Below are positions 23,344 to 64,000 of a DNA stretch of 64,000 nucleotides, piece after piece. Source of the DNA: Schmidtea polychroa (Eukaryota). The first letter of the stretch is position 1. Each line of letters starts with the position of its first letter. The stretch spans positions 16,928,001 through 16,992,000 of the forward strand of contig CM097885.1 of assembly GCA_044892525.1 (NCBI GenBank), read 5' to 3'. The notes beneath the pieces are model-generated. The model did no database searches and had not been told where the DNA came from. It saw nothing but the letters and a program-made list of their open reading frames with translations. A program made the position numbers and the translations under genes.

Positions 23344-23365
23344 ATACGAAGTTATAAAATACAAA

Positions 23366-23830: not shown

Positions 23831-23878
23831 GGATTTTTACTATAAGGATTTTTACTATATGAATTTACTACTAAAGAA

Positions 23879-24643: not shown

Positions 24644-24667
24644 AGATTCATTTTAAATTATTAATAA

Positions 24668-25678: not shown

Positions 25679-25686
25679 TTATTAAA

Positions 25687-26283: not shown

Positions 26284-26377
26284 AATGGGTGTATTTTTAA
26301 AAAAGTAGATCAGGTTGCTATAGTTGCTTAAATTAATTGTCGACATTTTATTATTAAAAAATTAAATATCGTTGGTT

Positions 26378-26932: not shown

Positions 26933-26956
26933 TTTATAGTGTTAAAATTCTAATTC

Positions 26957-31336: not shown

Positions 31337-31409
31337 TTTTAAAAGAATCTTTTGGTTGGATACGATGTTTTGGTTTTGATATTAATTTTTATTTTTTTTA
31401 AATCTAAAA

Positions 31410-36034: not shown

Positions 36035-36126
36035 AATGTCCCGATGATTTACGAGTAAAAACAGATATTTTCAACCCAAAAGGTGCCATGGTTTATAAAC
36101 AAAGTTGAAAACCTCTATGAATAATA

Positions 36127-36651
36127 ATGTTTCTAAAAGCAAGGGTGAAAAATATTAGGAAATTAAGAAAAGGTATTAGAAAGACTATTAAAGTTCCAAA
36201 GGTTCCACCAACAACTAGTTATACACCATCTAAAAAACTTGTAACTGAAAATTTTTCTGCAATGAATCTTATTTCGAAAAATCCTAAACCTAAACGTAAA
36301 ACCCGTAAAACCAGTAAAAAAGTAGTTAAAAATCATCGCAGTTTTCCATTTTTTAATGCATTGTTAAAGGCCCCGAGTATGAAAAGAACGAATATATTGC
36401 AATCATTCCCAAATTTTGTTGTCGATGATTTACTCAATATTACACTTAAAGTAGTCAAAGGCAAAATTAAAATCAGTAAATCAAAAAAGCATTTATTGAG
36501 CAAACATAGGAAACCATTGTTATCTTTAGTAAATAATAAAAATCGTAAGAAAATGAGGAAAATTATATATAAACAACAAGGTGGATTTATTGGCGCATTG
36601 ATACCTCTGGCATTATCATTATTAGGTGGAGTTGTAGGAAATCAATCATAA
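36127..36651 (+). CDS. Basic putative virion core protein with protein X-like tail
   Basis: K/R-rich; ends QQGG|FIGALIPLALSLLGG. Confidence 0.65.
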   Translation: MFLKARVKNIRKLRKGIRKTIKVPKVPPTTSYTPSKKLVTENFSAMNLISKNPKPKRKTRKTSKKVVKNHRSFPFFNALLKAPSMKRTNILQSFPNFVVDDLLNITLKVVKGKIKISKSKKHLLSKHRKPLLSLVNNKNRKKMRKIIYKQQGGFIGALIPLALSLLGGVVGNQS

Positions 36652-36755
36652 ACAATGGGTGCTAATCCTCCATTGCCCGACATTAAATTTAATTTTAAAT
36701 CTTCTTGTTGTAATGGAGAAGATTTGGACGAACCCAGAAGACGAAGCCGGTTTCG

Positions 36756-37005
36756 GTGGAGTGGAGATTTCCAACAAGAGCGTATAAAACATTTGGTATT
36801 GACGATTTATGGCAAATGGATTTGATGGAGATGATACCTTATTCGAAAATTAACAATGGGAATAAATATATTTTAACATGTATTAATGTATACAGCAGGT
36901 TTGCACGAGCAATACCAGTCAAGGCTAAATCTGCAGAAGAAATGTCCAAGGCAATTAATATTTTATTTAAAGATGGACATCCTAATAACTTGCAAACAGA
37001 TTTGG

Positions 37006-37041
<36 letters not shown>

Positions 37042-37685
37042 TTATTATTATTTTAGGTAAAGAATTCTACAATAGCAAAGTTAAGCAAATCCTCTATAAA
37101 CTGAAAATAAATCACTACTCGGTACATTCTCAATACAAAGCTGCCCATGTTGAAAGATTTAATCGAACATTGAGAGATCGATTAAAGAAATTGTTCGTGC
37201 ATCAAAGTAATAAAAAATGGGTAAATGCTTTACCGAAAATAATAACAAGTTATAATCATTCATCACATCGAGGACTGAATGGATTGAGACCGGTTGATAT
37301 TACATCAAAAACATCATTGACTTCTAAGAAATCTGTAAAAATTACAAAACCTAAATATAAAGTCGGTGATCATGTTAGAATTAGTAAAATTAGTGCATCA
37401 CCATTTATTAAAAATTTTGATACAAATTGGAGTGATGAAGTCTTTGTAATTTCAAAAATAAATACTAAACAGAATCCTGTAATGTATGTCATCAAAGACA
37501 ATGATAATAATATTGTACAGGGGAAATTTTATGAGCAGGAATTACAAGTCATTCCTCCCCCAAAAGTATTTAGAATTCAAAAAATATTGAAAACTAAAAA
37601 GGTCGGTAAGGATAAACAATACTATATCAAATGGCACGGTTATCAAAACCCGTCATGGATATCGTCAAAAGACCTAGTAAAATGA
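36756..37685 (+). CDS. Retroviral-like integrase with chromodomain, 51-nt intron (37006-37056), N-terminus apparently deleted
   Basis: WQMDL, QTDLG|KEFYN, VERFNRTLR, YYIKWHGY...SWI. Confidence 0.9.
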
Positions 37686-39062
37686 ATTTTTATATTATTT
37701 TACCTAGCAATAGCTGTCCACTTATTCATCCAGATAATAAAGCCAGCAAATTCAGGGTCAATCTTCAAAATCCGATATATTTGGATAATAGCTGGGAAGT
37801 TGCTCTGTTGGATTTTACATTTGTATACCAAGCCTTTCCATTTTATAGTAAATCCGAATTATGTATATTTGATAGACCGTCGCCCCAGGCTGTAATAGAA
37901 TTTGGGGCGTTTGAGGAAGTTTTTCCAATGAATTCAATTACTGATAGTAGAAATGATATAGAGTTTTATATTAATGGTTCGCAAACTGAATATTTAGATT
38001 TGAACGATACTTTATTGACTGTTCAGATCAAGGTTATAGATAAAGATAAAAAAGCTTTGGGTCATGCTGCTGATGCAATACCGAACAATTTCATGTTTCA
38101 TACTCTTTTTAAAGATGCAGTGTTGGGATTTAATTATATCAAGATTGAAGGTGGTAATAATACATTCATTCACAAGGCTTTGATAGAAACTATTTTAAAT
38201 TACAATTCCGATACTAAAAATACATGTCTTTTATCCAATGGGATATGCTGCAACCGACGATGAAAGAAAAAAGTGGATTAAAGGCTCAAAAACATTCACC
38301 ATGTGTTCATCGTTACAACTCGATTTTATGGATCAACCGAAATATTTGCTTCCAGGAGTTAATGTCCACATTCGATTGAAAAGATCCGATTCTGCACTAA
38401 CTCTTACTAGTGCTACAGGTGCACCAATATGTCAATTAGTTGATGCAAAATTATTGGTGAGAAGAGTACGAGTAGACCCCTCAGTATTAGCAGGTCATCA
38501 ATTGGGTCTTAATTCAAAACATGCAATTTATCCATTAAAAACAAAGGAAATTGTACAATTTGCTATTGCTAAAGGTGCTTCATCATTCTATAAAGAACAA
38601 ATATTTGGTGACAGAAGAATGCCTAATTTTATTCTGATAACATTTCAAAGTGAAGCACAATATAATGGATCATATACTGCGTCCAGCTCAATTTTCAAAA
38701 ACTTTAATGTTACTTCATTGACTTTGTCGAAAAATACTGATTATAGAGAAACATATATTCAAGATTTCGAGAATGACAATTTCTGTGCGACATATATGCA
38801 GAGTATTGTTAGAAATCTGGGTTATTTAGATAAAAATTTGAATTGCGGAATAACTCTAGAAGATTTTAAAAGCAAATACCCATTTTTTACATTTGTTTTA
38901 GCCCCTGATTTTGATTTAAATCAAAGTCAATTACCTCAAAATGGAAATTTACGACTGGATATAAAGTTTGCAAAAGCTATTACTGAACCAGTACATGTTA
39001 TAATATATGGAGTATTTGAAAATGAAGTTCAAATTACTGCAAATAGAACTGTGTTGGTATAA
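37682..39062 (+). pseudogene. Minor-capsid N-terminus fused (probably by deletion) to major capsid protein; frameshift near 38235
   Basis: FYIILPSNS...WEVAL (penton start) joined to SELCIF...IEFYI...YLDLNDT; then QPKYLLPGV, MPNFILI, GNLRLDIKFA. Confidence 0.75.
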
Positions 39063-39166
39063 ATGTATATTGAAACACAAAAAGTTGTCATGGAGTAAGT
39101 TGTTTTTTTATACTCTGGATTTATTTAAGTAGTTCTGTTCAGGTCAATAAAATCGGAAAACAGATA

Positions 39167-39460
39167 TTGGGAAATGAATTTGTTGGAGTTTTTCCTCTTG
39201 ATAAAATTCCATATTTGAGCAATAATCAAGCAATAATCGTCAATACTCAATCGTCTCATCTCGGTGGAGAACATTGGATAGCTATATATATGAAACCTGG
39301 TAATATATTCGTGTTCGATCCTATGGGTTTTTATTACCCGGCTTTGTTGATATCAAAACTACAAACAATGGGGAAACCTATTGTGTATAATAAAACTATG
39401 TTTTCAAAAACCCAAACATGCGGTCAACATTGTTTAGCTTGGTTATTGTACAAAAAATGT
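39167..39460 (+). pseudogene. Adenain-like protease remnant
   Basis: FVGVFP, IVNT...GEHWIA, FDPMG, TCGQHC. Confidence 0.85.
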
Positions 39461-39563
39461 TTAATAAATTTGATGTTTAATAAATGTATCCTTTCCTTTG
39501 TTGTTGTGTTATTATTAATATTATTATTATTAATATTATTATTATTATTATTAATATTATTAT

Positions 39564-39594
<31 letters not shown>

Positions 39595-40799
39595 ATTAAT
39601 ATTATTATTATTATTATTAATATTATTATTATTAATATTATTAATATTATTATTATTTTTAATTAATTTTATTATTATTCAAATAAATATTATTATTTGT
39701 AACATAAAGACTGCCTTTGCCTGAAGCATGCACAGTGCAAGTTAACAAAGGCATGACTAACAAAGGCAGTCACATGTAATTTTGAGTGATTTACATTACA
39801 TACATGCATGCGTGTGATTGGTTGAGTGATTAAAATATTCAGTGTATATGTGTGTGTGTCTATATTCTCATTGGCTGGGACAGGAAAATATTCATTCTCT
39901 TTATAAACATTGACAAATCTAAAATTTGTCACAATTATTCTAAATTTTTCAAATTCCAATTTTAAAAATCTAAATAGAAATAAAATGGCTAACAATAATA
40001 TATTAAGAACACTATTAACGACAATGGGTAATTTATTTTATTTTATTATATTTTATTTTATTATTTTAGAACCATTCGATTGGTATCAAGTAACTCAAGA
40101 CGACACAATTTTAAATGTTGATAATATCTTCAGTAATTTTATCCTTTTAATTTTTATTAAAATTAATTTTATATATTTTAGATTCAATTGTTATTAGTGA
40201 TGACGACGATGATGTCGTTTTTATTGAACAAAATGTTAATGATGTTGGGCAAAACAAGGGTTTCAAAGAAAAAAGTAAATTTATTTTAGTATTTTATTTA
40301 AAAAAATTTTTTTTTTCAGCGTTTAATGTCGACATTGACGAAACGGAAAATGCAATCAATTGTGAGGATGTTCAAAGTGATGATGAAGATATTATATTTA
40401 TAGGCGAAACTACTGCCCCGGTTATTAATGTTGGGCAAAACCAGGTTTTCAATGAAAAAAGTAAATTTATTTTAGTATTTTATTTTTAAACAATTTTTTT
40501 GGATTTAATGTTGACGAAACAGAAAATGCAATCAATTATGATGAGGATGTCCTCTCTGAAGAGGAATCGGATTCCGACATGGAATCTGAACAAAATGCTG
40601 TCGATGTTCAATAAAATGCCCTCAATTGTGAGGAGGATGTCCTCTCTGAAGAGGAATCGGATTCCGACATGGAATCTGAATGTAAGTCTTATTTATTTTT
40701 ATATTTATTTTTATATATTTCTTTTAAATTTTATAAGAACTTTTTATAAGAACTTTTTTAAATATTTTTATATTAATTTCTTAAAAACTTTGTAATTAA

Positions 40800-41250
40800 C
40801 TTATGATTATACGAAGAAAATGATTTATGAGCAAAATGATTTATGACCAAAATGATTTATGACCAAAATTATGATGAAAATGATTTATGAAGAAAATGAC
40901 GAAAATTATGAATTTATGATTTATGAAGAAAATGACGAAAATTATGATTTATGACGAAAATTACGAATTTATGATTTATAAAGAAAATTACGAATTTATG
41001 ATTTATGATGAATTTATGATTTATGACAAATATAAGAATTTTTGAAGAAAATTACGAATTTATGATTTATGAAGAAAATTACGAATTTATGATTTATGAT
41101 GAATTTATGATTTATGACAAATATAAGAATTTATGATGAAAAAAAAAGATTTATGTTGAAAATAATGAAATTATGACGAAAATTATGAATTTATGATTAT
41201 ATGTTGAAAATTAATAGAAAATTATGATGAAAATTAGGAATTTATGAAGT
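40800..41250. repeat. AT-rich minisatellite
   Basis: Degenerate repeats of GAATTTATGATTTATGAAGAAAATTAC. Confidence 0.85.
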
Positions 41251-41352
41251 AAATACTACGTTTCTGAAATTAATATAAAAATATTTAAAAAGTGCTTATA
41301 AAACTATAGTTATAAAATAATTCTTGCAATGTGCATCTACAGTAGTTAAAAT

Positions 41353-41395
<43 letters not shown>

Positions 41396-41587
41396 TCTAC
41401 AGTAAGCATGTAGCTACATAGTAGTCTACAGTAAGCATGTAGCTACATAGTAGTCTGCAGTGAGCATGCAGCTACTTCTTTTTAATATAATAATAGTATA
41501 AATAATAATCTGACCCTTCTACTATAGTCTACAGTGAGCATGTAGCTACATAGTAGTCTGCAGTGAGCATGCAGCTACATCTCTTTA

Positions 41588-41667
<80 letters not shown>

Positions 41668-41745
41668 TAAATAATCTGACCCTTCTACTGTAGTCTACAG
41701 TGAGCATGTAGCTACATAGTAGTCTGCAGTGAGCATGCAGCTACT
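41396..41745. repeat. 29-bp repeat clusters separated by (AAT)n
   Basis: TCT(A/G)CAGT(A/G)AGCATG(T/C)AGCTAC, seven copies in three blocks; a further copy at about 46116. Confidence 0.9.
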
Positions 41746-42449
41746 TCTCTTTAATAATAATAATAATAATAATCTTACTCGTCTAATATTTAACATATTC
41801 ATATAATAATCTGACCCATATACTAAAATCTCTCTAATATTCTCTCGAATATATTAACCTATTTTCTATAAGGATTTATCATCATTTGTTATATAGTTCA
41901 TTTGAATTAAATAACAAATGATGATAAATCCTTATAGATGTAACAATTAATAACAATTAGAAAAAAGAATAAAACTTTAATTTTATTATTTAACAGGTAG
42001 ACTATACCCAAATTATTGTCAATCCTCAATTGGACATAACGATAAATGTCATCGCACCATGAAAAAGTATTACAGAAAGACATTTAATTCAGTCAACTTT
42101 TTTATATGCCCCAAATGCGTGACTAGCGAAAAAATAAAATATAGGGAATTTTTTAATAAACATCATAGTCACTTAGGGCAATTTTCGATTTCAAAAAATG
42201 TTTTATTTAAAAAAATAAATAAAAAATTAAATAAAAAAAAAATTTAGAAAATAATTTACAAAAAAATTTGCAAAAAAATATTATTAAAAAGATGTTATTA
42301 TAAAAGATTCAAATATTATAAAAGATTCAAATATTATTAAAGATTCAAATATTATTAAAAAAGATTCAAATATTATTAAAAAAGATTCGATTAAAAGACC
42401 TGCTGGTTTAATTAAAAATTTTATTCCGAATAAATTATCGCGACCTGAA

Positions 42450-45400
42450 GTGATAGTCATCAGCAAAGATGAATGTGTAGCTTCAACGTCTTTCAACATA
42501 TGTCAAATAGGCGGCTCTTTGTTTGAACCTATGGTAGAATCCGATTTGAACGGATCGCGAAAAACTTTAAAATTTGATATAAGAAATCAAAACTTAGTAA
42601 AAATAGCCCTAACATCAAAAATTGAAGATAGATTAATAGAGGAAATAGAAAAGATGGGCAATGTAAAAATTCAATTTACAATTTTAATTAAATTTGAAAA
42701 AGATGGGGAGATCCGGGATAATTATTTTTCAAACAATGCGCAAGTTTTTTCAGCAAATTTTATAAACGAGGGGGTGAGCAAATTAAATGAAAAGATTGAG
42801 CAATTCACCTATTTAGGAAGCGGGTGGCGCGTAATGAATATTTTAGAGATAGATTTTATTTTAACGAAATACGCACCCGTTAGTAGATTATCCGGACATA
42901 GCTATATAAAAACCCCATCTGCATTAAAATTGAAACATGCAATAATTAATGTTAAAAACAACGACCATAAGTGTTTCTTATATAGCATTCTTGCACTTTT
43001 AAAAAGAGAAGAAATAGGTCGTAATCACCAAAGAGCCGCCAAATATATAGAATTTTTACCTCTATTAAATTATGATGAAGACACAGATTGCCCGATGAGG
43101 CTATGTAACATTCCCAAATTTGAAAGGAAAAATCGTGATTTAAAACTAAGCATAAACGTTCTTTCGTATAATCCAGCCAGTTCTGATTGTGATATTTCTC
43201 AGGATTATGTAGCTCACCACCCTCATCTTAATATCATACATCGCTCCAAGGTTATAGATGGTAGGCCGATTTATTTATTACTTTTGAGTAATAAAGATAA
43301 ATATCATTATACGGCAGTGACAGACTTGGACAAATTAATGAATTGTCATTTAAATGAAAATGTAAATGTTCAAATAAGGTGTAACTGGTGCCCACATTGT
43401 TTAAATGGCTTTAGATATAAGAATGCTTTCGATCAGCATGTTGCTCTATGCTGTAAAAATCAGACTGGCACAACCTTGTATACACTTCCTAAAAATAAGG
43501 ATTTATTATTCACAGATTACGCAAAAACTTTTACACCTCCCTTCGTAATTTATGCCGATTTTGAATCGGTTTTACCTCAACATGAAACATATCATCAAAT
43601 ACATTTACCTATCTCAGCAGGTCTTTTATTAATTAATAATTATACAAACACAAAATTTTATTATTATTTTTTTGGACCTAATTGTATTTTGGATTTTTTG
43701 AGGAAAGTGGAGGAAATTGCTGTCACAATTGTCCTGCCATATTATGAACTTGAAGGTCATAAAGGTATGTCTACTTTGTCTTTTGCTCAGGAGCGTGCCT
43801 TTCGATCTAGTACTATTTGTTATTTGTGTAAAAAAGCTATTATTAATCCTGTGAGAGATCATTGCCATTTTACAGGTAGATATGTCGGAGCGGCATGTAG
43901 GAAATGTAATGTCTCTCGCAGGATTAATAAGTTGTTACCAGTAGTCTTTCATAATTTACGAGGCTATGACCTCCACCATATTTTAAAACATGGTCTCAGT
44001 GATTTTCCCCTTTGGGAACTTAATATTATACCTACCTCTACATAAAAATTTATATCTTTAATTGCATATATTAACAAATTGCCTGTTCGTTTTATTGACA
44101 GCATGCAATTTGTTAATTGTTCTTTAGCAAAAGCTGTGAAAACACTTACTACTTTTCCGTTAACTTCGTCTGTCTTTCAAGGGTCGATGATTCACTCTAA
44201 AGGTGTCTTTCCATATAATTTCGCTACTTCTTTGTATGTTCTTGAATCGACTTTAGAATTACCTCCTATTTGGTCTGATATTACGGAAGATCAATATGCT
44301 GAGGCTCAACTAATTTGGAGTCAGCATAACTGTAATAATTTGTTAGATTATATGTTAATCTACCTAAAATTGGACGTATACCTCCTCGCAGACTATTTTC
44401 AGCAATTCCGCGGTAAGGCAATTGCTTACAATGGTCTGGATCCTCTTAATTTCTACGGGATTCCCGGTATGTCATGGGCCTCAGCGCTTATGACATTAAC
44501 GGAACCCATAGAACTTTTGCAGGACATGGAAATGTATAATTTCTATGAGGGAGGTATCCGGGGTGGGTTAACATTTGTTAACAAACATTACACGGCTACT
44601 TCAGATGATACAGAATTATTGTACATTGATATAAATAATCTGTATGGTTGGGCTCTTAGCCAAAATCTTCCGTATGGTGATTTTTCTTGGGTGAATGTTA
44701 ACTTGAATGATGTTTTACTTGAATGTATGAACACGGATATTGATAACCTTCCATATGGGTATACTATGGAGGTTGATATCGATATTCCGGAATGTGTGCA
44801 TGACTTTTTGAATGATTTTCCGCTTGCGCCGGAAAAGTTGTGCCCGCCTAATTCAAAAGTTGAGAAGCTTATGCTTACGCATTGGCCAAAGAGGAACTAT
44901 GTTCTTCACTGGAGGCTTCTCAAATTGTATATAGAATTAGGTGCGGTTGTTGTAAATATTCATAGATGTATAAAGTATAAACAAGGACCTATCTTTAAAT
45001 CCTACATAGACACCAACACCACTTTACGATCTCAGTCTACTAGCGAGATATATAGGGACTTGTTTAAATTGTATAATAACAGTCTGTACGGTAAATCCGT
45101 TGAAAATCTGAAAAAACGAATGAATTTGAGGTTGTGTAATTCATCCGAAAAGATGATAGTATACTCCTCAAAGCCGACTTTCAGAAAGTCTATAAGAATC
45201 GATAACGATCTGATTGCGGCACATTTGGAAAAAGATTCAATTTGTTTAGACAGACCTAGCTACATCGGTCAAACAGTACTAGATCTGTCTAAACTGCGGA
45301 TGTACCAGCTCCAATATATTGATTTGGAGAAGTACAGACGTCAATATAAATGTATTATAAATATTATTGCCGGTGATACCGACAGTTTCTTTTTGGAAAT

Positions 45401-45920
45401 AAAAAATTTAAAATTAACAACTCTATTACCTCAGATGATCTCTGATAATTTATTGGATACGTCAAATTACGATCCAACACACCCCTTGTATAATAGGAAC
45501 CTTGACTCTGTCATCGGGAAGTTTAAAGATGAGAGCAAGGGATTAGGTTATTCCGAATGGGTTTTCTTACGCCCTAAATGTTATAGTCTTTTAGGTAGTA
45601 AGGAAACGGTAAAAGCGAAGGGGGTTAAATTACCAGGGACATCAATAAATCATGAAACATATCTAAATTGCTTTCATTCAAATCAGGTGATTTCTGTACC
45701 GCAGACTAGAATAGGTACTAGAAATCACCAACTTTTTACTTTTAAAAATTCGAAAATTGCCCTAAGTAATAATGATGATAAGCGCGCGTGGCTAGGCAAA
45801 AACATAAGTTACGCATTTGGGCACAATTTAGGAGTTGACGAATTAAGTGAATATGATGAGGAATTCAGTGCAGCTCCAAGTCCCAGTTTCGACGACAGCG
45901 AATGGGATGAAGATCAATAA
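42450..45920 (+). pseudogene. polB: Protein-primed PolB with one in-frame stop (44043-44045); additional 5' exons likely
   Basis: YADFE, DHCH, FHNLRGYD, YIDINNLYG, KLYNNSLYGK, GDTDS; both ORFs share a frame (PTST*KFISL). Confidence 0.93.
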
Positions 45921-49715: not shown

Positions 49716-50781
49716 TATTATTATTATTATTATAGCTTTTAGATGTGGAGAAAATTTAATTATTCAAAGCATAGAAAATAATAAACATTTAACATTTAAA
49801 AATTATAAGAAATATAAGTAAATTAAATTCCATAATATTATTAAATTCTATAGTGTAATAAATATCAAAACTAACACTTGACATTTTCGCAGAAAATGCG
49901 ACAGTAAATCAATACTTTTGGAAGAATTTCCCTAGTCCATTAGTGTGGATTTTCCAATTTTGTATTTTAAAGACTGTATTAAGCCTATTAAGTCCGCATA
50001 TTCACATAATTCAAGAGATTTGATGTAATTAAAGAAACAATATAAAAGTAAACAAAAAACTCAAAAAAATTATTCGACTTTTGATTTTTCTTATAATGCA
50101 TCAAAATAACTGAAATACTAAGACAATAAAGTGATATAATGAATAAATGTTTGATCATTAAAAGACCACTCAAACAACTGTTTTACGATATATTTTGGCA
50201 GGGTCACTGTTATCATCAGATAAGAAAGAAAAACTATAGATGCAATAGATATTCAAACAAATTATTTGCCTAATTTAATTACCCACAAATAAAATATCAT
50301 TTATATCATATGAAAAAAGTCTGTAGAAATATCGTGTGCCTTACAAATTTTTTGATCTAGTCTTACAAACAACTGTATTGCGTATTTCGTCTATGACAAG
50401 CAGAACTTTGGTTTATATTGATTTTGTTATAAACCAACCTTTTGTTGGGCTGAGTCGAAAACTTAATTGTTCAAAAGTAGGAAAATAAGAAAGTAGGACG
50501 TTAAAGAAAATAAAAATAAAATAAGCAAAATTAAGAATAAAATAGAATAAGATATAAGGAAAAAACAATAATTAGGAAATAAGGATTAAAACAATAAATA
50601 AAAATAAGAAAAATTAAAATAGAACAATAAATTGACGAATAAATGATGTAAAATTTAATAAATAATAAGGAAATTAAGGAAATAAATAGAAAATATATTA
50701 AAAATAAAGGAAATAAGGAAAAATAACCAAAAAACAGGAAAAAGTAAATTAAATTGAAAAAATAAGCGGTACTCAATTCTG

Positions 50782-50868
50782 ATTGGTCCGCATAAATGAA
50801 AAATTATTATATAAGCAGGCACCAAAATCATAAAAATCAGTGTTAATTCAAAAACTTCATAGGTAAGT
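50782..50868 (+). promoter_or_regulatory. Pol II promoter and splice donor in element A
   Basis: ATTGG 50782, TATATAA 50808, TCAGT 50837, AG|GTAAGT 50863; CCAAT, TATA and donor conserved in element B (54998, 55024, 55080). Confidence 0.65.
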
Positions 50869-51301
50869 AAATTTTAAATATCATGCAGTGTTAATTCAAA
50901 AACTTCATAGGTAACGATCCAGAGACAGCCGCGACTCAAAATCAATTCAACGTTACATTTGCAATAGAAATCGACACCCGAAGAGTTACAGAATCCGAAA
51001 TCAGCAGACTATTTTGTTTGAAAACCGAACATTATATTTTCGACTCAGCCTAATTCAATAGTAAGGAGATTTTCTTTATGGTATTTATTTTAGAAGTTAA
51101 TCGTACTTATGCATATTTGATGAATAATTAAAATCTTAATTTAAAGCAGTTTTCCTTTTCATTTGATCCCCCGTAATGATTTTAATAAAGTAAATGATTT
51201 AAATGTCTAAAAGTATTTACTAGTAACAAATGAATCATTGAGTAATTTTTATGATTAGTTTTTATGAATTATCATTTTTCTGTGTTTAACTTAATGAGGA
51301 A

Positions 51302-51440
51302 CGTGGAGTTGAGATACTCCATGTCATGGTGTGAGGTGCCTTCAGGAGCTCAGCCGGTGGACATGGAGTTTTTCAATCACGCAGCTAGATTGGGCCGAAA
51401 TGTGAAGGCTTCTTCACGGGTCCAATCGCTGAAGGTGACT
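51302..51440 (+). ncRNA. Conserved structured RNA element 1 (copy A)
   Basis: Compensatory changes versus 55524-55660; strand inferred from G-U-compatible changes. Confidence 0.7.
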
Positions 51441-52812
51441 TAAAAAATATAGAAGAATGGAAACGAAGGAGAGTAGTGACATCTAATTAAATGAGATAGT
51501 CGTAGTAGTAGTGATCCACAGTGACTGAGCGAGTCTAAAATCTTCACATCTGCGATAGTTCTGTAGCTCTCGTGTTTTGGCAGTCTATTATCATCATCAG
51601 CTTTAGATTCCAGACAGTGTAATTTCGCTAATAGGGCAAGTATCATCTATTAACCAATTACTTTGATTTCGAAATAGCCACTCCCACTCAATTTCAACAA
51701 TGAATCCAATTTAATAGTACTTAGCCTGACAGTAAGACAGTAGAATATAAGATCATCGAAAATTGAAATTGAAAAATAAGTCAATACACGTGAAACATCT
51801 TTTATTTAAGTACAAAGGGAAAACAAATTTTCGAAATACCTGTATATGAGCCAATGTGTAAAACATTTTCTTCATTTAACTCCCAAAACAGTCGCCATCA
51901 ACCAAGTAAGATAAGTAAAGACACCCAGAATGGTTTAATGAAACTTCCTCGAATGCGATATATCCAATAATAGCGACGAGAGAGAATTTACACTTGAATT
52001 TAGACTAGTCGAGTGTAATCTAACACCAGTAAACAAATCCAGAATGCTATTCGTATTAAAATTCAGTAGAGCCACTATATTCGCCTGCGCGCACACACAA
52101 GTATTATGAGTCCAGTAGCAAATCCATATGGGATATCCATCAGCGATAATACAGTAAGTTATCAATCATACTTGCGTGAGAAAATTTCCATACGTCACCC
52201 CGTTAGGTTTTTCCTGTGATTTGAATCAGCAGTAGGTAAATTCGCATTGAGCAATTACCCTGAGAGACTCCACCCAGCACGCAGCATTCAGTTTCCAACT
52301 ATAAGATAAAATCATCAGCCAGAGAGAAATTCACGCGGATTACTGATAACCGAAAGCGTGCAGTTGTATAATTTAAGTCCAAAGTTTGGAACTTCTAAAT
52401 TTAATCTGTATAACTAACGATTAACTAAACCCGCGGAATCTACCGAATTTTCATATTAGATAATTATCTTTTGTAAAGTAGTTAGTAATTTGATTTTGAG
52501 CTCTTGAATGTGATTTAACATTTTTAGGTAAAATTTAACTATTACTCATTTCACTTAATAGGTAGAACTTCCATTTTTTTTTGTATTACCTTCCTTTGAC
52601 AAAGTTATATTGTCGGTTGATATCTTTTAGTAAATAATTAATCTAAAGGGAATAAAGATCGATCTTCTAGGGAAAAGATCCTCTTGTCAGCCGACCCGGT
52701 TCCCTTTCTTGTCAGAATATCTGGGACATTCAACGAATAATGTGTCGGAACAATGATCTTATAAAATTAGTTTATCTCGTTTAGATTTATCTCTTCTTTA
52801 TAGCCATCAGAT

Positions 52813-53560
52813 ATGCTACCAAACGCCAGACCGGCACTCAAACCCTGTTTATCTTGCTCAGATAAGAATGTAGTGATCAAAGACTTACAAGCCCAGATAG
52901 GCCGTTATAAGAGAAAAATAGATGAGTTGGAGGGCACCTGGTTTAGCCCCACTCAAATGAAGGAAATCCAGAAGAGATTATATCGAAGTGAACATTGCCG
53001 TGACGCTCTAATCTCCGAGAGCCGGTCACAAAGAAGCTTAATAAAGGAGCAGTCCGAGGCCCTGCACAAGGTGTACCTGCAGGCGGCCACCACTAGAAAA
53101 ATCGTAACTATCCCTATTCGCGAAGCCGATGAGCTTTTTCCGGCGCACCATGATACTTCTGCCAAATGGCCGTCTTCTTCCAAGAAATCTTGCCGACAGT
53201 GTGTAGAAACGGAACTCACCAAAAGACCCAGATCTCATCATCACGGGAACGAGCAGAGCACAAAGTGAAAGCACACCTACTGATACTGTGCCACAGAGGG
53301 ATCAATCAACGTCGAAACCGAAGCGTAAGCAGTTATCGCGGGCAGAGCGTAAGAGACGACAGCGCGAACGAGCAAACATCCAGCAAAGCACCACAGTGAT
53401 GGAACCCCCAACTCCCCGAAACGTCAACCCAGCGGTGGTAGATCTAACTACCGGGATCTCCGCACGGATTATCTCGGCTGCTGGCGTAGTATGGGAGGAA
53501 TATGCCTCCGAATTTTTCGACATCGACGAATTATTACGGGATACCGAGTGGGAAAAATGA
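52813..53560 (+). pseudogene. Element-encoded protein of about 245 aa (CxxC, coiled coil, Arg-rich motif, acidic tail); one frameshift near 53220
   Basis: Homologous to 57133-57881 with many synonymous differences; splice acceptor 9 nt before the ATG in both copies. Confidence 0.8.
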
Positions 53561-53823
53561 GTAACTCCAGCAGAAAGCTCAGTGACTATCACCTCTATTA
53601 TTAGCATCATATGTGATTCTCTGTCATACCATCCATCTGTACATATGGATCTTCTGTTGTTTTGTGTTTTGAGAATGAAATACATTTATTCCTGTTCCAT
53701 TTATTTATTTTCGTTAGTGAGGGTTAGGCATAAAATTATATACGGATTGTTTGAAGTTTGATGAGTGTCAGCCAATTTGCATTCGATCTACCGGTAATGA
53801 GAGATTTGGATAATACGAAACGA

Positions 53824-53967
53824 CGTAAGACCTTCTATCGGCCGTCTAGTGTGGGAAGTCGAGACCTCAGTAAGGAGTAGTTTTAAGGCAGAAGCTCACC
53901 TGCTTACTGGCGTCTCGCCGGCATAGTGCAGTACCAACGTGAAGCAGTTCACAGGCACTATGTTGGA
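53824..53967 (+). ncRNA. Conserved structured RNA element 2 (copy A)
   Basis: Compensatory and wobble changes versus 58168-58311. Confidence 0.7.
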
Positions 53968-55523
53968 ATGCGAGTTATGCGGGGTCCTACTCAGTGTTGG
54001 AAAGAGGAGAGGATTTTTGGTAGAGTGGGCAATCAACCCTTAGACTAGCCACAAATGAAATAGCCAACCGAGTAAGCCACCCCAGCACTTTTATATATGA
54101 CAAAAATATATTCTTATGCGGCTGGGAAAAACATAAAATAATAAACTGAAAAAAATAATAATAGATCCGTATTTTGTACACAAAAGTTACATTAGACTAT
54201 AAGAAAATTTAAATCGTGTGTTAGAAATAATTCAAGAGAAAATGTTGTCTTTAAAGGGCCAGGAGAGTTGAAGCACTTACTCTTGGAATAAAACACAGGA
54301 CATATTTTTTTAAAGGTTCTTAAAAATGGTGTTTTAATTTTATGAAGTGAAACAATTTACATTGCATTTATTGAGAAATCAGTAGTCATTTTTTAATAAA
54401 TACAATGTCAATTGAAAAGAAATCAGAGGTGAAAATCGAAAGAAGTTTTTACGAAACAATTTAGTTCAAGCAAATTTGAAAAGGTTGAAAATAGATTCTC
54501 ACAACATTTGTCAAAATTGGTATTCGGTTGCATGACTAATGATGATAAATTCAAGTCGATAATCATATTAAAAAACGATTCTGAAGGACAATTTTATAAC
54601 AACAATTGTAGAAAAGACATATCCTAAAGGAATTTAGGTTTATTGTATTTTTAATATAATTTAATAGAAAAAAATGAATTTATGCTACTGTTGGGCTGAG
54701 TCGAAAACATAGATTGGAGATTAGGACAAACAAGATGTTAAATAAAATAAAAATAAAGCAAACAAATTTAAAAATAAATTAGAATCAAAATACAAAAGAA
54801 ACAATAATTAAAAAATAAGAGTTAAAACAAAGAATAAAAAATAAGAAAATTAAGATAAGAAAAATAAAATAACGTAAAATTCAGTAAATAATGAGGAATT
54901 AAAGAAATAAACAAAAAATATAATAAAAATAAGAAGAAATAACCAAAAAACAGAAAAAGTAAATTAAATTAGAAAAACTAAGCGGTACTCAATTCTGATT
55001 GGTCCGCACACATGAAAAATTAATATATAAGTAAGCACCAAAATCATTAAAATCATCGTTAATTCAAAAAATTCTATAGGTAAGCAAATTTCGAAAGTAT
55101 CAACCACCGTTAATTCAAAAAATTCTATAGGTAAATCCAGAAACCGCAGCGACTCACAATCAACCGAAATTAGCCAAAGCATAATTAGTAATAGGAATCA
55201 ACATTCAAGGAACCATCAGGATTTGAAATCGAACAGACTATCTTCAAAGACGAACAATTCATTTTCGAGTTAGCCCTCAAACCGATAACGATAGTAAGGA
55301 GATCTTTTATTTTTGAAAAGTTAATAGTAATCATGGATATTTGTTAAATAATTAAAATTTTGGTTTAATGCGATTTTTTCTTCATTTGATCCCTTGTAAT
55401 AATTTTAACTAGGTTAATGATTTAAATGGCTAAATGTAATTACTAACAATAAATGAGTTATTTCAAAGTTTTTATGATTTGTTTTATGAGCTGATATCTT
55501 ATGATTTTAATTCTTATGAGAAA

Positions 55524-55660
55524 CGTGGTGTTGAGACATTTCATGTCATGGTGTGAGGGGCCTTCGGGAGCTCAGCCGGTGGACATGAAGCTTTTCAATC
55601 ACGCAGTTGATTCGGGCCGTAATGTGGGGGCTTCCCCACGGGTCCGTCACTGAAGGTGAC
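55524..55660 (+). ncRNA. Conserved structured RNA element 1 (copy B)
   Basis: See copy A. Confidence 0.7.
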
Positions 55661-57132
55661 CTAAACTCAGTTAGAATAGCAGCATATAGGGTGCATAATA
55701 GATTCTAAATCAAAAGAAAAGTAAGATTTACGATTTCACAGTGATTGAGGGAGTTACCATCTTTGTACCTACAATGACTCTACCACATTAAGCATCATTC
55801 TTCGAGAAATTCATGCTATCACCATCTGTAAATCGGAATCTCTAATGTTACATTAATAATTCGATTAACACTCATCTCTAACGAAATTATCCAACGTTGA
55901 GCTCTCCTTTTATCCTTCGGAAAATGAACCGATTCGAATTTTCACCTTTACATCTTGATGATCATATGATAGAATTCAATAACAACATTTACGTAAAAAT
56001 GGAAAAAATAATACTATATGTATATCAATATTTTATTTAAGTACATTCATAAATTAATTTCCGACTACCTGTGTAAACGTTCTCTATGTGATCCATTCCG
56101 AATGACCATAGCTGAAATGAAATTGATAGACATCTAGAGAGTTTAGAAATTCCATCGTTAAGTATATCCAGCTCTAGAGAAATTACGACTTGTACTAACA
56201 AATTCCAACATTGCAAGTTAGATGAGAACTGACAGACGATGAATACGGCACCTAAAATATTCTCTAATACCACATGTGAAGTCAAGTAGAAATTCCACCG
56301 AATAGCACACGTGCATGTATATATTGTAACTGCGATTAGCGATATCCATATGTGAGTATGCGCGAGAAATAGCATAATCAATGAGCAACCATTCACAGTA
56401 GGGAATTTCACCATGTGTCACACCCGATAGAATTTTTCATCTTTGTGAATAGTAACGGGTGAGCGTATTAGATAACAGCTACCATGAGGTGCGACACTCA
56501 GGTTGTTGATTCTCAGATTTTTGTTTTGGATAAAAATCGTTTGTGTCGTTATCGAGATAAATTGAATAATCAATAGACGATTACCGAGGTATGAAAATCC
56601 TTAAAGTCCACTTATTAGAAAATTGTAAATTAAGTGTTATAAACGACAATAGAAATTTTAATTAATTATGATAGATAATAATCGAAATTTTAAACCAAAT
56701 GCTGTAAATAATAATTAAACTTAGACAGATTTACCCATATAACTCCTTAGGCATTCACGTATGAACATCATCAAGTGGGAAAAGGGAAAGTTTGGGGGAA
56801 GTAACTAGCGCTGTATATTTTAATTTTTGATCTAAAACATGATTTAGCAATTTCAAGAGAGATTAAGGAGTTAATAAATTCACTATTGTGGAATTTTCAT
56901 ACTTAATTTGTATTCGTCAAGACAATGATATAGGCGATTAATTAATATTTTGTAAATAAGGTACAAAGTGATAGCGATCAACCGTCTGGGGGGCGGAATT
57001 TTCCTCATCTGCTTGTCCTGTTTTCTTCCCTTGCCGAATATCCGACAGTGAATAAACAACTGCATCCGATCAACGATTTTGTAAATGTAGTATATTCTGG
57101 TTATCATAGTTTCTTCTTTACAGCTATCCAAC

Positions 57133-57881
57133 ATGCTACCGAATGCCAAACCTGTACTACGCCCTTGCTTCTCCTGTTCTGACAAAAATTCTATTATCAA
57201 GGATTTGCAGTCCCAGATCGGTCGATACAAAAGGAAAATCGACGAACTGGAAGGCATATGGTTCAGCCCAGTGCAAATGAAAGAGGTACAGAAGAAGTTG
57301 TACCGCAGTGAACATTGTCGTGACGCTCTAATCTCTGAGAGCCGTTCCCAACGGAGTCTAATAAAAGAGCAATCGGAAGCTCTGCACAAAGTGTACCTGC
57401 AGGCGACGACTACTCGAAAGATCGTCAGTATCCCCATCCATGAAGCGGACAACATCTTCCCAGTGCATCACGATACCTCTTCCAAGTCATCGTCTCCCTT
57501 CAAGAAGTCCTGTCGAGAGTGTGTAGAGACCGAGCTCTCACCTAAGCACCCGGACATCATCTTCACCGGAACCAGTAAGGCGCCACCCACCATTGCATCT
57601 ACATCTGCAGCAACCCAGAATAGTCAGACGGCATCGAAACCTAAGCGACGGCAACTATCGAGGGCCGAACGCAAAAAAAACAGCGAGAACGAGCGACCGC
57701 CAAACAGCACGAACAATCGGCGGGCAACCCGATTAACGTCAACAATTCCCCTTCAGTGATCGATCTGACAACCGGGATCCCAGGGCGAATCATCTCCGCT
57801 GCTGGCGTAACCTGGGAAGAAAATGCCTTAGAATTTTTCAATTTGGACGAATTGTTAGCCGACACCGAGTGGGAAAAATGA
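57133..57881 (+). pseudogene. Element-encoded protein, copy B; frameshift in the A-run 57673-57680
   Basis: Second frame ends VIDLTTGIPGRIISAAG...EFFNLDELLADTEWEK*, matching copy A. Confidence 0.8.
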
Positions 57882-58167
57882 GAATCCACGGTGGAGTGCT
57901 CTCAGCGATCGCAAATTTTCGGACTACGTTATCAATGTTTTCTTTCTTTTTCCTTTTCTCATTGAAGTACATTTGTGGCGTATAAATTATCTGTGTTTGG
58001 TGTCATAAAATTGAAATAAACCATTTTTCCGTTTTTATATATTTTCCTGTGCGAGGATGTTCGGTATAGACTGTTTGTGAATATAGGTGAAAGCTTTCAA
58101 GGTTCAATGAGCGTTAACCAATTGCATCTAATACAGAGATAGTGAGGGTATGAATAATATGAATAGG

Positions 58168-58311
58168 CGTAAGTCCTTCTATCGGCAGTCAAGAGAAGGA
58201 AGTCGAGGCCTCAGTAAGGAGTAGTCCTAAGGCAGGGGCTCACCTGCTTACTGGCGTCTCGCCGGCATGGTACATTTCCAACGTGAAGCAATTCACGGGT
58301 ACTATGTTGGA
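58168..58311 (+). ncRNA. Conserved structured RNA element 2 (copy B)
   Basis: See copy A. Confidence 0.7.
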
Positions 58312-60401
58312 GTATAGGTTGTGCAGGGTTCTGCTCGGAGTTGACAAAGTGATAGCTAACATATATGAAATGAACAATCATCTCTTAGACGAAAAGTTAA
58401 AATAGTTGGAGTCAACCGAGTAGCGCCCCAGCACTACCTATGATTTAAATATCAAAAATTTGAACATTCAAACTACAGAGGATTAATAATATTGAATAAA
58501 TTATTTCTAACTGTATTTTATCTTACTACACAAAGTAAATAAGAGGGGGGTTGGATCCATGCGCTAGACGATGGAACACGCGAATAGGTGGTGGGTGAGG
58601 TAACCAACATAGAGCACCCAATACAAGCGGCAGAACTCTTGGCGCTTTCGGTACCAGTCAGATAGTGAGCTAGGATGAGATTAAAAGTTTCAGCTGATGG
58701 CAAACTCTGGATCCTGTGTCGAAACTCGTTCCGAGTATATATGATACATTACCCATGTCTGCCACTGTGTCAGTGTGCGTTGGGCACTACTTTAGCCGAT
58801 AATGCCTTATAATGAATAAATTGCATGTATTGAATTAAGACCCAATTGATGACTCGCTAAAACTGACAGGTCAAATCGAACTCCTCTCACCAATAATTTA
58901 GCAATAACTAATTGACATATTGGTGCACTGGTTGCACCAGTTATAGGTAATACAGAATCGAGATTTCTCTGTTTAATGTGTACATTAACTCCTCAAATAT
59001 GATATAAATTATTTGGTTGGGTATCAAGATTTGTATAAAATACCAAAAGTTAGAACAGAATGGAAAATAGTTCAGCAATTCAAAACAGTATTACCGAACG
59101 AAAGTCCCCATTAACAAACTTTACGGATTCGGATTACGGATTTTTCGCTTACATTACTTATTTTTTACATATGAATTATATATTTTAAGTTTTATTGCTC
59201 AATAAAATTGCATATGTATATGTATATCAGAACTTTACAATTTTTAACATTTTTCAGTTTTAAACTAAATATAGGTTTTTATTGCATCTTATACGATTTA
59301 AAGATATTGCCTAAAAAATCAAAGGATCAGCCGTGTTCTTAGACCTTATTTGGTTGCGTGCAATTCAAGTGATGTGAAAACGAAAGGTTTACCGAAAAAG
59401 ATGGAAAATAAGCTTTCTAATATGATCAACGTTTTGCAGGAAGGTTTACAAAATTAAAGTATTTCAATTTGTGTTATAAATAGAACAAAATCAAAGTAGA
59501 AAATAATTCAATCGAGACTATTCAATTCGAAAATATTACTAGCCCTAAACAAAAATCATTAAGACGTGCGCAACTTTATCAGAATATAATACACAGCGGT
59601 AGGCCTAGACCACATACTAACCACATGGCAACAGCAGTTAAGGATGCAAATGCAAAACTATTTACTCATCTAATATCTATATTTGAAATGCCTGATCTTA
59701 AAAAATGGCCATTAATATTAAGACGCTTTGGATCGATGGTGAAAGACAGCTGAATAATTTGACCAAACACAAATATTTAACGTTCCAATTAATGATTTTA
59801 GAATTTTTATTGATAAAAATAGAGCTACCAACTCGTGTTTATGTTTACTTACAAAATGTCCTAAATAATTAAATACAGAAAATACCACAAGCAAAAAAAT
59901 AAAACCAAACTCCTTTAAATAAATTATTAAATTTTTTTGTCTTTTTTTTATGGGTTAGTAAAGCAAAACCGAATTTTTCCCATACAAAAATATGTTCCAA
60001 AAATGTATAGATATTCCGCTTTACCGAGTATTAAGTTTATCTCAACAAGTATAAAAAGAGACAATAAATTCTTATTTTAGTGAAAACAGTACATCAATGA
60101 ATTTGCTGTGATTTTATGTCTTAGATTTATACATTGCAGAAAAAATTGATAATTATAGCGACTTATGGGGATTTTTATTCCAATAAATTATTTCGTCAAC
60201 ATGGGAATTATGAATATTGAACCTCCACAATCAAGTAAAAGAACAAAAAGAATAATCAAAACTATTGGTGTTATGGAAGTTGAGCGTGGCTTCAGTGCAA
60301 TGGGAAATTTATCGAAACTAGTCTTCATAAGAATTTAGGGGAAACCTGAAACTGCTTTTAATCTTCTAGCTTATATAAGAACATGTTTGAGGAAGCATAA
60401 T

Positions 60402-63400
60402 GATTTAAATGATATACTTTCTAAAAAAACAAATGAAGGAATTAAAATTAAAATGGATATACCAACTTCAAAATGTGTAATGACTTTGAAGAATATAAAA
60501 ATTAGTTTTTTAGATAATTGTTTCTTTCACACAGTTTTAGGATTTAAACCTATGGATATAACAATAAAAGAAGATAAAATAATAACATCAGAACATATTA
60601 TAAAAATAATAAATACAAACACAATAAATATTCATTGCGATTGTATAACAGGTTCTTATAATAATGGTAAACAAACAAATGTTTTATATTCCTTTCCCTC
60701 AAACACAGTTCCTATGGGATATAAAATAGTTGAAAGAATGAATCCTCCAAATTATTTACCTTTATGTAGAAAATATATAATGGATATTAATTTTAAAATT
60801 CTTAATCAAGAAGGAGAATTGATTGATTTTAATGGAGAAGAGATTTCAATGTATTTACATTTGAAACAGGTTTGAAGATTCATTTTAAATTATTAATAAA
60901 TGAGTTCTTATATTCCATGTAATAGAGGTGGTGGAACAATAAAAACAGGGTTTAATACAGAAGAAATATTAACTTTAACAGAAAATAAATATATTAATGA
61001 AAGAGGTGATTCAATGAAGGGTGATTTAATTTTAAATGGACACAAGATAAAAGAATTATCTTTTCCAACTGATGAAGCTGATGCAGTTAATAAGAAATAT
61101 GTAGATGGTGTTAAAAAATATACTGATTTAACAACAACAAGAATTGAAAGTTCATTAACAACAAAAATTGATTCAATGGAATCAAAGCTTAATAATATCG
61201 AACAACGATTTAATGATAAATTTGACAAGTTACAAAGTCTGTTAACTGAACAAGTTGTAAAGTTAAATACTGCTATATTAAATTCTAAAGATAAACAAAT
61301 TATGAATACTAAATTTAATGCAATATATAATATAATAAATGAGATGATTACATCATTTAATAAAAGAATTTCAAATTTAGAGTCTCATGGAACACACATT
61401 AACACCACACATAGTATTAGAAAAAGAGCTGCTGAATTAGAACAGAATAAAACATTATTACCCCATACATATAAACATTTTATAGAACCAAGTTTAATAA
61501 CAACAAACAGTAAAGAATGGGGTGTTTTTATGGTTGTAAAAATTATTGATCCTTATTTCTTTTTATTTGATGATGATAATGAAAGAATGAAATGGTTTGT
61601 GAAATGTGATTATAATAGTAAGCTTGAAAAGGGTGATGTTATAATGACTAGTTATGATTTACCACACGGAGATTGGTATGTTAATACTCATTCACATGGA
61701 CTACATAAAGTTAAAAGTAAGAATATTCATTTTTCTAGTTCACTTGTACAATATATAGATTTAATATTTTATGAAAAAAAGGTTGATGTTGATGAAGTTC
61801 GTAAAGCATTGAGAGAATTGTATAAAGACATCCTCTCAACAAGATTTTCTTTTGATATCCGAGTATTGGTGCCAGGTGGTGCTCAGAAGAATAAAGTCTT
61901 ATTTTTTTAATTATTAAAATGGAAGAAGTAAGAGAAGAAAAAATTTACCCAGAATTGAGATCATCAGGATATTATTCTTCCAAGGCCTCGGCTCCCACAG
62001 AACTTGAAATTATGAGAGTAAAAGAATTTAAATCAGAAACCTTACATTTACAAGATTTATTAAAGCATTATAAAAAAATTAAAAATAGATGGAATAAAGG
62101 GAATACAGTTTTAAAAGTTATAGGTTATTCTTTAGGATTTGCATCTGCAATATTAACAGTTATTTTACCCATAACTTTACCAGTTTTAACACTTGCGCCA
62201 GTAATACTTGGAAGTATTTCTGTAGCTGATGGTTTCTTAACTGAAATAGTTTCATTATCTTATACTTCTAAAAAGAAAAGTTTATATAGAGAAGTTTGTT
62301 TATCAATAGAATTAGGAATCTCTAAATTATTTTTATTTCAATTAAAAGCTTTGGAAGATGGAATCCTGACAGACGAAGAAATAATGAAATCAAATCAAAT
62401 AATACAAGATATAAAGAATGAGGTTATAAGATTAAAAAGGGAGGGCATGGTGGCTAATGTTATAAGTAATAAAAAAACATCTCGAGAAAAATGGTTAAAG
62501 AATTCTTACTTATAAAATGGGTGTATTTTTAAAAAAGTAGATCAGGTTGCTATAGTTGCTTAAATTAATTGTCGACATTTTATTATTAAAAAATTAAATA
62601 TCGTTGGTTTCAGTTATGGTTGAAAGCCAACCTATGAATCATTAATTTATGATCTTTAAATTCTTTATCACTTAGACCTTTCATATATTCAGGATCAGTA
62701 TTAAAATATTTAAGTTCTAAACATATAGGATTAAAAACTTGAGAATATAAAGGTTTCTCGATTTCTCTCTCGGGATAAATAATTTCAACATTATAAATAT
62801 CAAGATCAGTAATCTTTGTATCATATAACTTATTCAACTTTTCTAGATTTTTTATTATAGGGATTAAATTATTTCCAATAGGTAGAGTTGTCTTTAAATC
62901 ACTTAGTATGAATCTCTTATCATCATAATTTGATAATGATACTTTTTGAGATTCTATCAAGTGAATATCATGGTTTTCACTTTTAAGTTGATGTATTTCA
63001 TCAATTTTATCTTTATGATTTGGATTCAATGTATCTATATAATCTTGATGAGAAAGATTCTTTGCAACCACTCTCTGTATTCCTTTACATCTGTTATCCT
63101 TTAAATTAGTAATATTTTTTATAATTTCAAAAATGTTATTTTCTTGATTTTTAGTTTCCATCATTTTATAGTGTTAAAATTCTAATTCTTAGACCAGTCG
63201 TAATTGATTTATAATTATTTCTGCAGTAATGCTTTTTAACATTAATTTATGTGATTTAAAGTCTTCTGGTGTTAGTCCTTGGATATATTCAGGATCAGTA
63301 TTAAAATATTTAAGTTCTATAGGTTTTATATTTTGAACTTGATTATATAAAGGTTTAGGAATTAATATTTCAGGATATTGGATTTCTACTTTAGCAAGTT

Positions 63401-64000
63401 GAAGGTCTGTAATCTCTAGGTTATAAATTTCATTTATTTTATCAAGATTTTTTATTATAGGGATTAAATCATTTCCAATAGGTAATGTTGTCTTCAAGTC
63501 AGAAAGTATAAATCTTTTATCATCATAATTTGTTATAGCAATCTTGTTACACTCTTCAAGATATATATTATGTTTCTCTGATTTAAGATGATGGGTTTTA
63601 GCAATTTTATTTTTATAATTTATATTTAATGAATCTTTATACTCTTGATGTGTGAAGGTTTTTGACACTGATTTTTGAATTCCTTTACTTTTATTTTCTT
63701 TATAGCTTTTCGGGTTTTCAGGGAATGAAGGATATTCAAATGTGTGATCTATTTCAACAGATCCTTCTCCCTCCCCTATTATAAATTTTATTGTATGCTC
63801 TTTCATAATTGGTTTGTCTTTCATTTCAAGAGAATATTGTTTAGGTCTAATAAACACTCCTCCACTTATTGGAGTATTTGGTTTTTCATCTTTAAAAGTA
63901 AATAATTCTCCAGAGTTGTTTATTAATTTATTTAAGGTTTCGTTTTCACTTATTTCCTTTTTTAAATCTTTACTATGACCTTTTAAAAACATACTATCAG
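60402..64000. mobile_element. 5'-truncated second copy of Maverick 1 (penton 3' part, fibre-like, membrane protein, PolB-C paralogue, pPolB 3' end)
   Basis: Matches 24170-27768 at a constant offset of 36232; translated ORFs appear identical; runs off the window. Confidence 0.97.

Follow-up and report, generated by a model that had tools for sequence, protein, structure and literature searches.

A protein gene and two structured RNA elements within the long terminal repeats of Burro-type giant gypsy elements: a possible Rev-like system in the planarian Schmidtea polychroa

Rev/RRE of human immunodeficiency virus 1, Rex of human T-cell leukaemia virus and Rem of mouse mammary tumour virus (MMTV) have in common a small protein made from a spliced mRNA, an arginine-rich helix, and a structured element located in intron-retaining RNA (PMC9143442, available part). 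A similar combination, in part predicted, is found in the long terminal repeats (LTRs) of giant Ty3/gypsy elements of the planarian Schmidtea polychroa. It is described here from a stretch of 64,000 nucleotides (GenBank assembly GCA_044892525.1, contig CM097885.1, positions 16,928,001 to 16,992,000; hereafter the window), in which an earlier note had pointed to two gene-bearing, LTR-like cassettes. A gene within an LTR is known from MMTV, whose sag gene is located in U3. Like sag, the planarian gene lies within a large LTR and would be expressed by splicing; unlike sag, which is served by a promoter internal to env, it lies downstream of the LTR promoter (PMC9143442, available part).

Foamy viruses offer a second parallel. 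In these viruses, U1 bound at the upstream major splice donor suppresses the polyadenylation [poly(A)] site of the 5' LTR, and another structure releases this site in the 3' LTR (PMC3694450, available part).

The element class itself is already known. Burro/GYPSM1 of planarians are giant gypsy-like elements (PMC6431247, citing Jurka 2007 and Grohme 2018), with a cargo that includes ubiquitin/SUMO-like, TRAF, and BIR domains, and Burro is repressed in planarians by PIWI-interacting RNA (piRNA; PMC8532177), according to the available parts of both papers. The addition made here is the LTR gene and the RNA signals inside such elements. In its available part, PMC6431247 names no LTR-internal gene, intron, or RNA structure, although Grohme 2018 may mention one. 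Similarly, word searches of an incomplete literature returned nothing relevant on gypsy LTRs that contain a gene or an intron, or on a Rev-like gypsy factor, although Grohme 2018, its supplement, and Repbase may mention LTR transcripts.

Two solo LTRs and the elements they come from

The two cassettes prove to be solo LTRs from a giant Ty3/gypsy element of the Burro type. Copy 1 spans 50443..54077 (3,635 bp) and copy 2 spans 54689..58433 (3,745 bp), and all features given below for the two copies are on the plus strand. Each starts with TGTTGGG and ends with CCCAGCA, which provides the TG..CA termini of a Ty3/gypsy solo LTR, and each has its own short target-site duplication (TSD), CTTT for copy 1 and CTAC for copy 2, which bears out the two independent insertions with different 4-bp TSDs that had been proposed. 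The copies share 65% overall identity. Duplications of 4 bp were present in 9/9 solo copies with both ends visible, and matching termini flank gag-env-pol at other loci. In one genome, the LTR protein gave at least 150 scored matches from 6,315 candidate places. The LTR pair also recurs, 100% identical, 36,232 bp downstream; this second pair belongs to a 36,232-bp tandem duplication of 99.97-100% identity spanning both LTRs (window 24167-27768 versus 60399-64000; G000:C1:16978443 and 17014675), either a recent duplication or an assembly artefact, and was therefore rejected both as an LTR pair of one element and as new evidence.

Full-length elements with two such LTRs around gag-pol, which the earlier note had set as a check, were found twice in this genome. 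In the first (G000:C2), which carries nested inserts, the LTRs are 99.7% identical over 3,551 bp, the TSD is TATG on both sides, and the region between the LTRs encodes gag, a Monjiviricetes-type fusion protein, protease (PR), reverse transcriptase (RT), RNase H (RH), integrase (IN), ankyrin, RING, and MATH. The second (G000:C1), of 31,151 bp, represents a diverged family, here called C, in which PF24664, RVP, RVT_1, RNase H, rve, and Ank lie in one open stretch of 2,313 codons, with gag upstream. Gag and PR-RT-RH-IN thus stand in gypsy order between two LTRs. A primer-binding site (PBS) complementary to host tRNA-Pro(TGG) directly follows the LTR 3' end at 43 junctions. Ribozyme and DNA-transposon (Ginger-like) readings were dropped because gag-pol and this PBS turned up.

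Three further observations concern these elements and their host. The tRNA-Pro(TGG) genes form a large tandem array at G000:C1 from 130901009, with a period of ~475 bp (2,384 pattern matches genome-wide). In three families, a conserved word that is not purine-rich stands before the 3' LTR, the usual place of a polypurine tract (L062 ~211-245, minus strand; L164 7280-7330; L064 ~5690-5719). Finally, a RING-finger open reading frame (ORF) of ~160 amino acids, with its own acceptor before the ATG, directly follows the PBS (L111 4472-4984).

The likeness to Burro/GYPSM1 covers size (at least ~30 kb; here ~31 kb), a gag with CCHC knuckles, an env-type fusion protein (env homology) in frame between gag and PR-RT-RH-IN, and a cargo of ankyrin and RING/TRAF/MATH domains; BIR, BCL2, and dUTPase had no Pfam match in the ORFs scanned. 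The assignment rests on this shared architecture. Of the invertebrate gypsy-like lineage that had been suggested, the gypsy-like character therefore holds and the novelty does not, the architecture being that of Burro/GYPSM1 (PMC6431247, available part).

The families differ in the content of their LTRs. Family A has the gene and both RNA elements, and family C has the gene and RNA element 2. The family B LTR, of 1.56 kb, contains both RNA elements and is followed by the same PBS, with no LTR gene (L075 ~7490-9050 and L064 5720-7282, plus strand). It is a young family, with 38 full-length LTR matches at 96-100%, many of them paired 12.6-14.4 kb apart; in its internal region, gag alone was found (one copy read), and family B is probably a non-autonomous partner of Burro.

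The LTR gene and the two RNA elements

Each type A LTR combines a working protein gene with two RNA structures that are under selection. The gene lies at 52813..53560 in copy 1 and at 57133..57881 in copy 2, with ATGs at 52813 and 57133. Both copies are frameshifted, at different sites as first reported (near codons 136-138 versus 181-182), and the length of about 245 amino acids ascribed to the gene is corrected to 247-249 by 45 distinct copies with an uninterrupted ORF. Both window copies contain the motifs that had drawn attention to them: two CxxC, KP(K/R)R..LSRAERK..QRER, [VI]DLT, and an acidic-aromatic tail. Not all of these are family-wide: the first CxxC is conserved in families A and C only, and the second CxxC and V(V/I)DLT in family A only.

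The ratio of nonsynonymous to synonymous substitution rates (dN/dS), also proposed as a check, reveals purifying selection. By band of divergence, pairwise values were 0.33 (59 close pairs), 0.18 (81), and 0.105 (142), from pairs that are not independent and after exclusion of 708/990 pairs as saturated at synonymous sites. The most constrained regions are a helical core (0.04-0.14) and the basic, Arg-rich helix (0.06-0.19; 0.19/0.06/0.08 across the same bands). In the Arg-rich stretch, matched in 43/45 ORFs, R and K account for a mean of 10.9 per 22 residues.

A profile search found 10 distant relatives of the LTR protein (E 1e-8 to 6e-4), most of them gene models that combine it with host genes. 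Identity goes down to 18-34% among relatives and is 29-34% for family C. Across them the core is kept (W..P, E.R.QR..I..QS, P..H), as is the basic helix in most rows, and R-rich runs such as RRPNRNRRRRERRR occur in distant relatives. In one relative, P0003, the Arg-rich helix matches Pfam REV at E 0.0013, below the cut-off. Public gene models P0001-P0005, P0007, P0009, and P0010 join the LTR gene to unrelated host genes, whose portions match this genome at up to 79-90%; such fusions are either mis-annotation or real exonisation of LTR insertions.

Database searches gave no known fold or family. Pfam returned nothing significant for four family-A proteins or one family-C protein, no match in PDB was obtained by fold or sequence, the ESM Atlas search had a best score of 0.83 and gave no lead, and a word-index protein search gave 0/290 candidates. 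The AlphaFold model is of low confidence (mean predicted local distance difference test score, pLDDT, 51.6), with helices at 15-93 and 177-193, the second being the Arg-rich one; this basic helix lies ~55 disordered residues beyond the helical core.

The two structured RNA elements that had been proposed are borne out by folding z scores and covariation. Element 1, with two long hairpins, lies at 51302..51436 in copy 1 and at 55524..55657 in copy 2; element 2, present in all three families, lies at 53825..53970 and 58169..58313. Compared with shuffles, the sense strand folds at z -6.0 and -2.0 (element 1) and at z -2.8 and -3.9 (element 2), and it folds better than the antisense strand in 4/4 comparisons. 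In element 1, 14/46 pairs changed on both sides across 34 copies, and in element 2, 9/29 pairs across 58 copies; 0/500 shuffles reached either count. Related sequences can beat such shuffles, so covariation counts here as support and not as a probability. Pairing in both elements is 97-98%, and slid controls drop to 35-50%. Rfam covariance models gave five weak matches (E 0.3-8), none of which overlaps either element.

Two words inside the elements deserve mention. Element 1 (window ~51346-51355) shares a 10-nucleotide (nt) word with the tRNA-Pro PBS (no mismatch in 20/34 rows, at most one in 32/34), possibly a second tRNA contact. Element 2 opens with a donor-like GTAAG (53825 and 58169; 54/58 rows, and also families B and C), which may be a third donor or a U1 site. 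In addition, family C has a different stable hairpin at the place of element 1 (L162 ~2045-2195).

Promoter, splicing, and polyadenylation

The CCAAT-TATA promoter described earlier is present in both copies, with a reverse CCAAT box (TGATTGG) and TATATAA at 50780..50814 in copy 1 (boxes at 50780/50808) and the two boxes at 54996..55030 in copy 2 (54996/55024). Exon 1, of ~24 nt and the putative start of R, follows at 50838..50862, where an exact repeat starts, and at 55057..55079; transcription would start ~30 nt after the TATA box. The first donors (AG/GTAAG at 50862 and 55079) had been taken as the start of an intron of about 2 kb. Each instead opens a predicted mini-intron, a 45-53-nt GT..AG segment that ends in a repeat of exon 1: 48 nt at 50863..50910 in copy 1, of which the last 25 nt copy exon 1, and 51 nt at 55080..55130 in copy 2. 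The long intron is predicted to run from a second donor, donor 2, to an acceptor 9 nt before the ATG (51061..52803 and 55294..57123), so that the acceptors (52803/52804 and 57123/57124) and the ATGs stand as first given. Donor 2 (51061 in copy 1) was found in 37/39 promoter regions by a first script and in 39/40 by a wider pattern.

The repeat of exon 1 is strikingly exact. In 38 two-unit copies, chosen at no more than 6 mismatches between units, the 22 nt before each AG were identical in 35 and differed by one base in 3; between copies, exon 1 differs at a mean of 8.8/22 positions, with 18 distinct versions among the 38. The repeat begins 27-37 nt after the TATA box and, in copies whose following base allows a decision, ends at the donor. 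Simple slippage would not be expected to keep to start site and donor alike, and we infer that the exact copying most likely stems from strand transfer on a packaged RNA that has been spliced. Mini-intron and first donor are missing (single unit) in 8/39 promoter regions, including 4/9 copies of a 98-99% identical subfamily. Exon 2 (50911..51060) is an ATG-poor leader: up to donor 2 the leader has 0.45 ATGs per copy, versus 5.4 in an equal length after it (38 copies).

Behind donor 2 lies a candidate LTR poly(A) signal, ATTAAA at 51127..51132 in copy 1 and 55351-55356 in copy 2 (AATAAA in other subfamilies), which is the probable end of R. A(A/T)TAAA occurs 35-90 nt after donor 2 in 36/40 regions, and AATAAA is at the same place in families B and C. 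The start of U3 (50443..50472) is complementary to a stretch just before donor 2, 51026-51055 in exon 2. In 25/26 LTRs, the first 35 nt have their best predicted partner just before or over donor 2, with sequences that differ among three families.

These genomic footprints probably reflect a single layout. Transcription would start at exon 1, and the mini-intron would be removed from the 5' end of the packaged RNA and kept in the 3' R. Minus strong-stop DNA would then anneal to the second unit and overwrite the intron end with exon 1 in each cycle. R (~300 nt) would end at the poly(A) signal ~65 nt past donor 2, which places the gene and both RNA elements within a U5 of ~2.9 kb. U1 on donor 2 would keep the poly(A) site of the 5' LTR silent. 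In the 3' LTR, whose transcript alone contains the U3 start, pairing with that stretch would free the site. The same pairing is also compatible with RNA circularisation for strand transfer, for which Ty1 offers a precedent. As in foamy virus, a donor stands upstream of a poly(A) signal in R, and a U3-dependent structure could hide it in the 3' LTR (PMC3694450, available part); unlike in foamy virus, the planarian pairing is predicted and long-range (~550-760 nt), and often ends 5-31 nt before the donor.

This one promoter would give rise to a short RNA, to spliced mRNAs for the LTR protein (from solo LTRs too) and for internal ORFs, and to genomic RNA that retains the long intron. Acceptors precede the RING ORF in 15/15 cases and the gag leader in 12/15, which points to spliced mRNAs distinct from genomic RNA. 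A search with one subfamily for LTRs that lack the long intron gave one match, with a mismatch, at control level, and the short LTRs L016 and L026, considered as spliced forms, were rejected as internal deletions. When contigs of three presumed-RNA runs and one unlabelled run were compared with L115, the presumed-RNA runs gave no GT..AG joint among the 15 joints listed of 50; the best-covered run spans flank and intron too and may thus hold DNA.

An alternative layout, in which a poly(A) signal beyond the gene ends R (~2.9 kb) and the hexamer downstream of donor 2 goes unused, appears improbable. Such a signal does exist: AATAAA lies 90-190 nt past the stop in 31/45 uninterrupted ORFs and at 58015..58020 in copy 2, and copy 1 has a weak AATGAA at 53674..53679. 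Moreover, the upstream hexamer often has the form ATTAAA and lies in an AT-rich stretch, and its background frequency (20% across the intron, 36% for the AT-rich stretch around the site) counts against an R that ends there. However, the hexamer of family B is upstream, with none after element 1 (read by eye), family C has AATAAA upstream and neither AATAAA nor ATTAAA from the stop to the LTR end, and the U3/R pairing is located at donor 2.

Elsewhere in the window, Polinton/Maverick-type genes (double jelly roll, A32 ATPase, pPolB, integrase) lie at 18290-31381 and 36121-45920. The segment 14-9225 contains long ORFs with no Pfam match, one of 539 amino acids with a hydrophobic tail; pieces of these are presumably transposase-like and exonuclease-like. 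An Ulp1+RT non-LTR element, both copies of which have a stop ahead of WSQ, is inserted into Burro LTRs (L064 7315-9924, minus strand; L176 3271-5499).

Possible roles of the LTR protein

An element with the short-R layout would need a means of favouring unspliced read-through RNA. Our best single guess, held tentatively and drawn from sequence features, is a system of the Rev/RRE type. The LTR protein may be an RNA-binding regulator whose Arg-rich helix binds element 1, element 2, or both, and favours full-length RNA over RNA that is spliced or terminated early; this too is a tentative proposal. The protein would then act like Rev/Rex or an antiterminator without belonging to those families. 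In family A, element 1 would by its position be confined to intron-retaining RNA. The system nonetheless differs from Rev, Rex, and Rem in that the protein has no significant homology to them (the sub-cut-off REV match of one relative aside) and no canonical nuclear export signal (NES), the gene lies inside the LTR, element 1 and the gene are not always together, and binding and export are predicted.

Several observations weigh against this proposal. None of the Leu-rich NES patterns of class 1a-1d, 2, or 3 is conserved in the 45 ORFs, and a reversed NES-like pattern, present in 20/45, is located within the helical core. The gene and element 1 can be found separately: gene-less family B has both elements, which may thus act for Gag or host factors, and neither nhmmer nor a covariance model detected element 1 in 11 family-C loci, one of them a complete LTR. 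The basic helix can be a plain nuclear localisation signal (NLS). In addition, the LTR copies are related, so that counts and covariation do not represent independent events.

Among other functions, a transcription activator comparable to foamy virus Tas or HTLV Tax is unlikely but the most serious contender. Here, the core would provide oligomerisation or contacts with DNA or a partner, the basic helix an NLS or DNA contact, and the tail an activation domain, with the RNA elements as unrelated packaging, dimerisation, or priming signals. The tail, with a net charge of -7 and ~7 F/W/Y/L in 25 residues, fits this well and speaks against an RNA-binding role; its dN/dS is 0.09-0.13 between subfamilies and 0.82 among close copies. 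The lack of a canonical NES in the 45 ORFs and the separate occurrence of gene and element 1 also agree with an activator. However, the basic helix stands ~55 disordered residues past the helical core, unlike the layout of a basic leucine zipper (bZIP), distant relatives have R-rich runs, and the Pfam and PDB searches found no known DNA-binding fold.

A role in counter-silencing or a host pathway (SUMO, piRNA), with unspliced RNA exported through use of element 1 by host factors in the manner of a constitutive transport element (CTE), is rather improbable. Family A and P0002/P0005 contain [VI]DL(T) words, which we take to be similar to SUMO-interacting motifs (SIMs), and family B thrives without the gene in cis. 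The ubiquitin and apoptosis cargo of Burro and its repression by piRNA are consistent with such a role as well (PMC6431247, PMC8532177, available parts). However, V(V/I)DLT is absent from family C, and the strongest conservation, in helical core and basic helix, is left unexplained.

Lastly, the Tat/TAR option of the earlier note, in which the protein would bind a promoter-proximal hairpin and promote elongation, finds some echo in the basic helix and the CxxC pairs of family A but is very improbable, because the predicted 5' end shows no stable structure (over the initial 100 nt of the predicted transcript, 0/4 stretches fold better than shuffles, z +0.4 to +2.0), exon 1 has 18 sequences among 38 copies, element 1 begins ~460 nt after the transcription start, and the CxxC pairs are not universal.

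Taken as a whole, it is conceivable, if doubtful, that a gypsy-class element independently evolved the regulation of complex retroviruses. Its protein, akin to Rev/Rex or to an antiterminator and produced from a giant U5, would act on cognate RNA structures; very many solo LTRs would supply it in trans, a gene-less partner family would exploit it, and strand transfer would preserve an intron in R. If the protein acts on the RNA elements, this would be a Rev-like system outside retroviruses. Solo LTRs are usually viewed as promoter debris; here, the LTR promoter stands upstream of the gene, which makes solo LTRs complete expression units, and each can amount to an entire gene for a conserved protein with a predicted regulatory role. 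The exon-1 repeat may serve as a DNA-only readout of transcription start and of packaged-RNA splicing, and together with the layout it implies a minus strong-stop DNA of more than 3 kb. RNA interference in planarians makes the function of the LTR gene directly testable.

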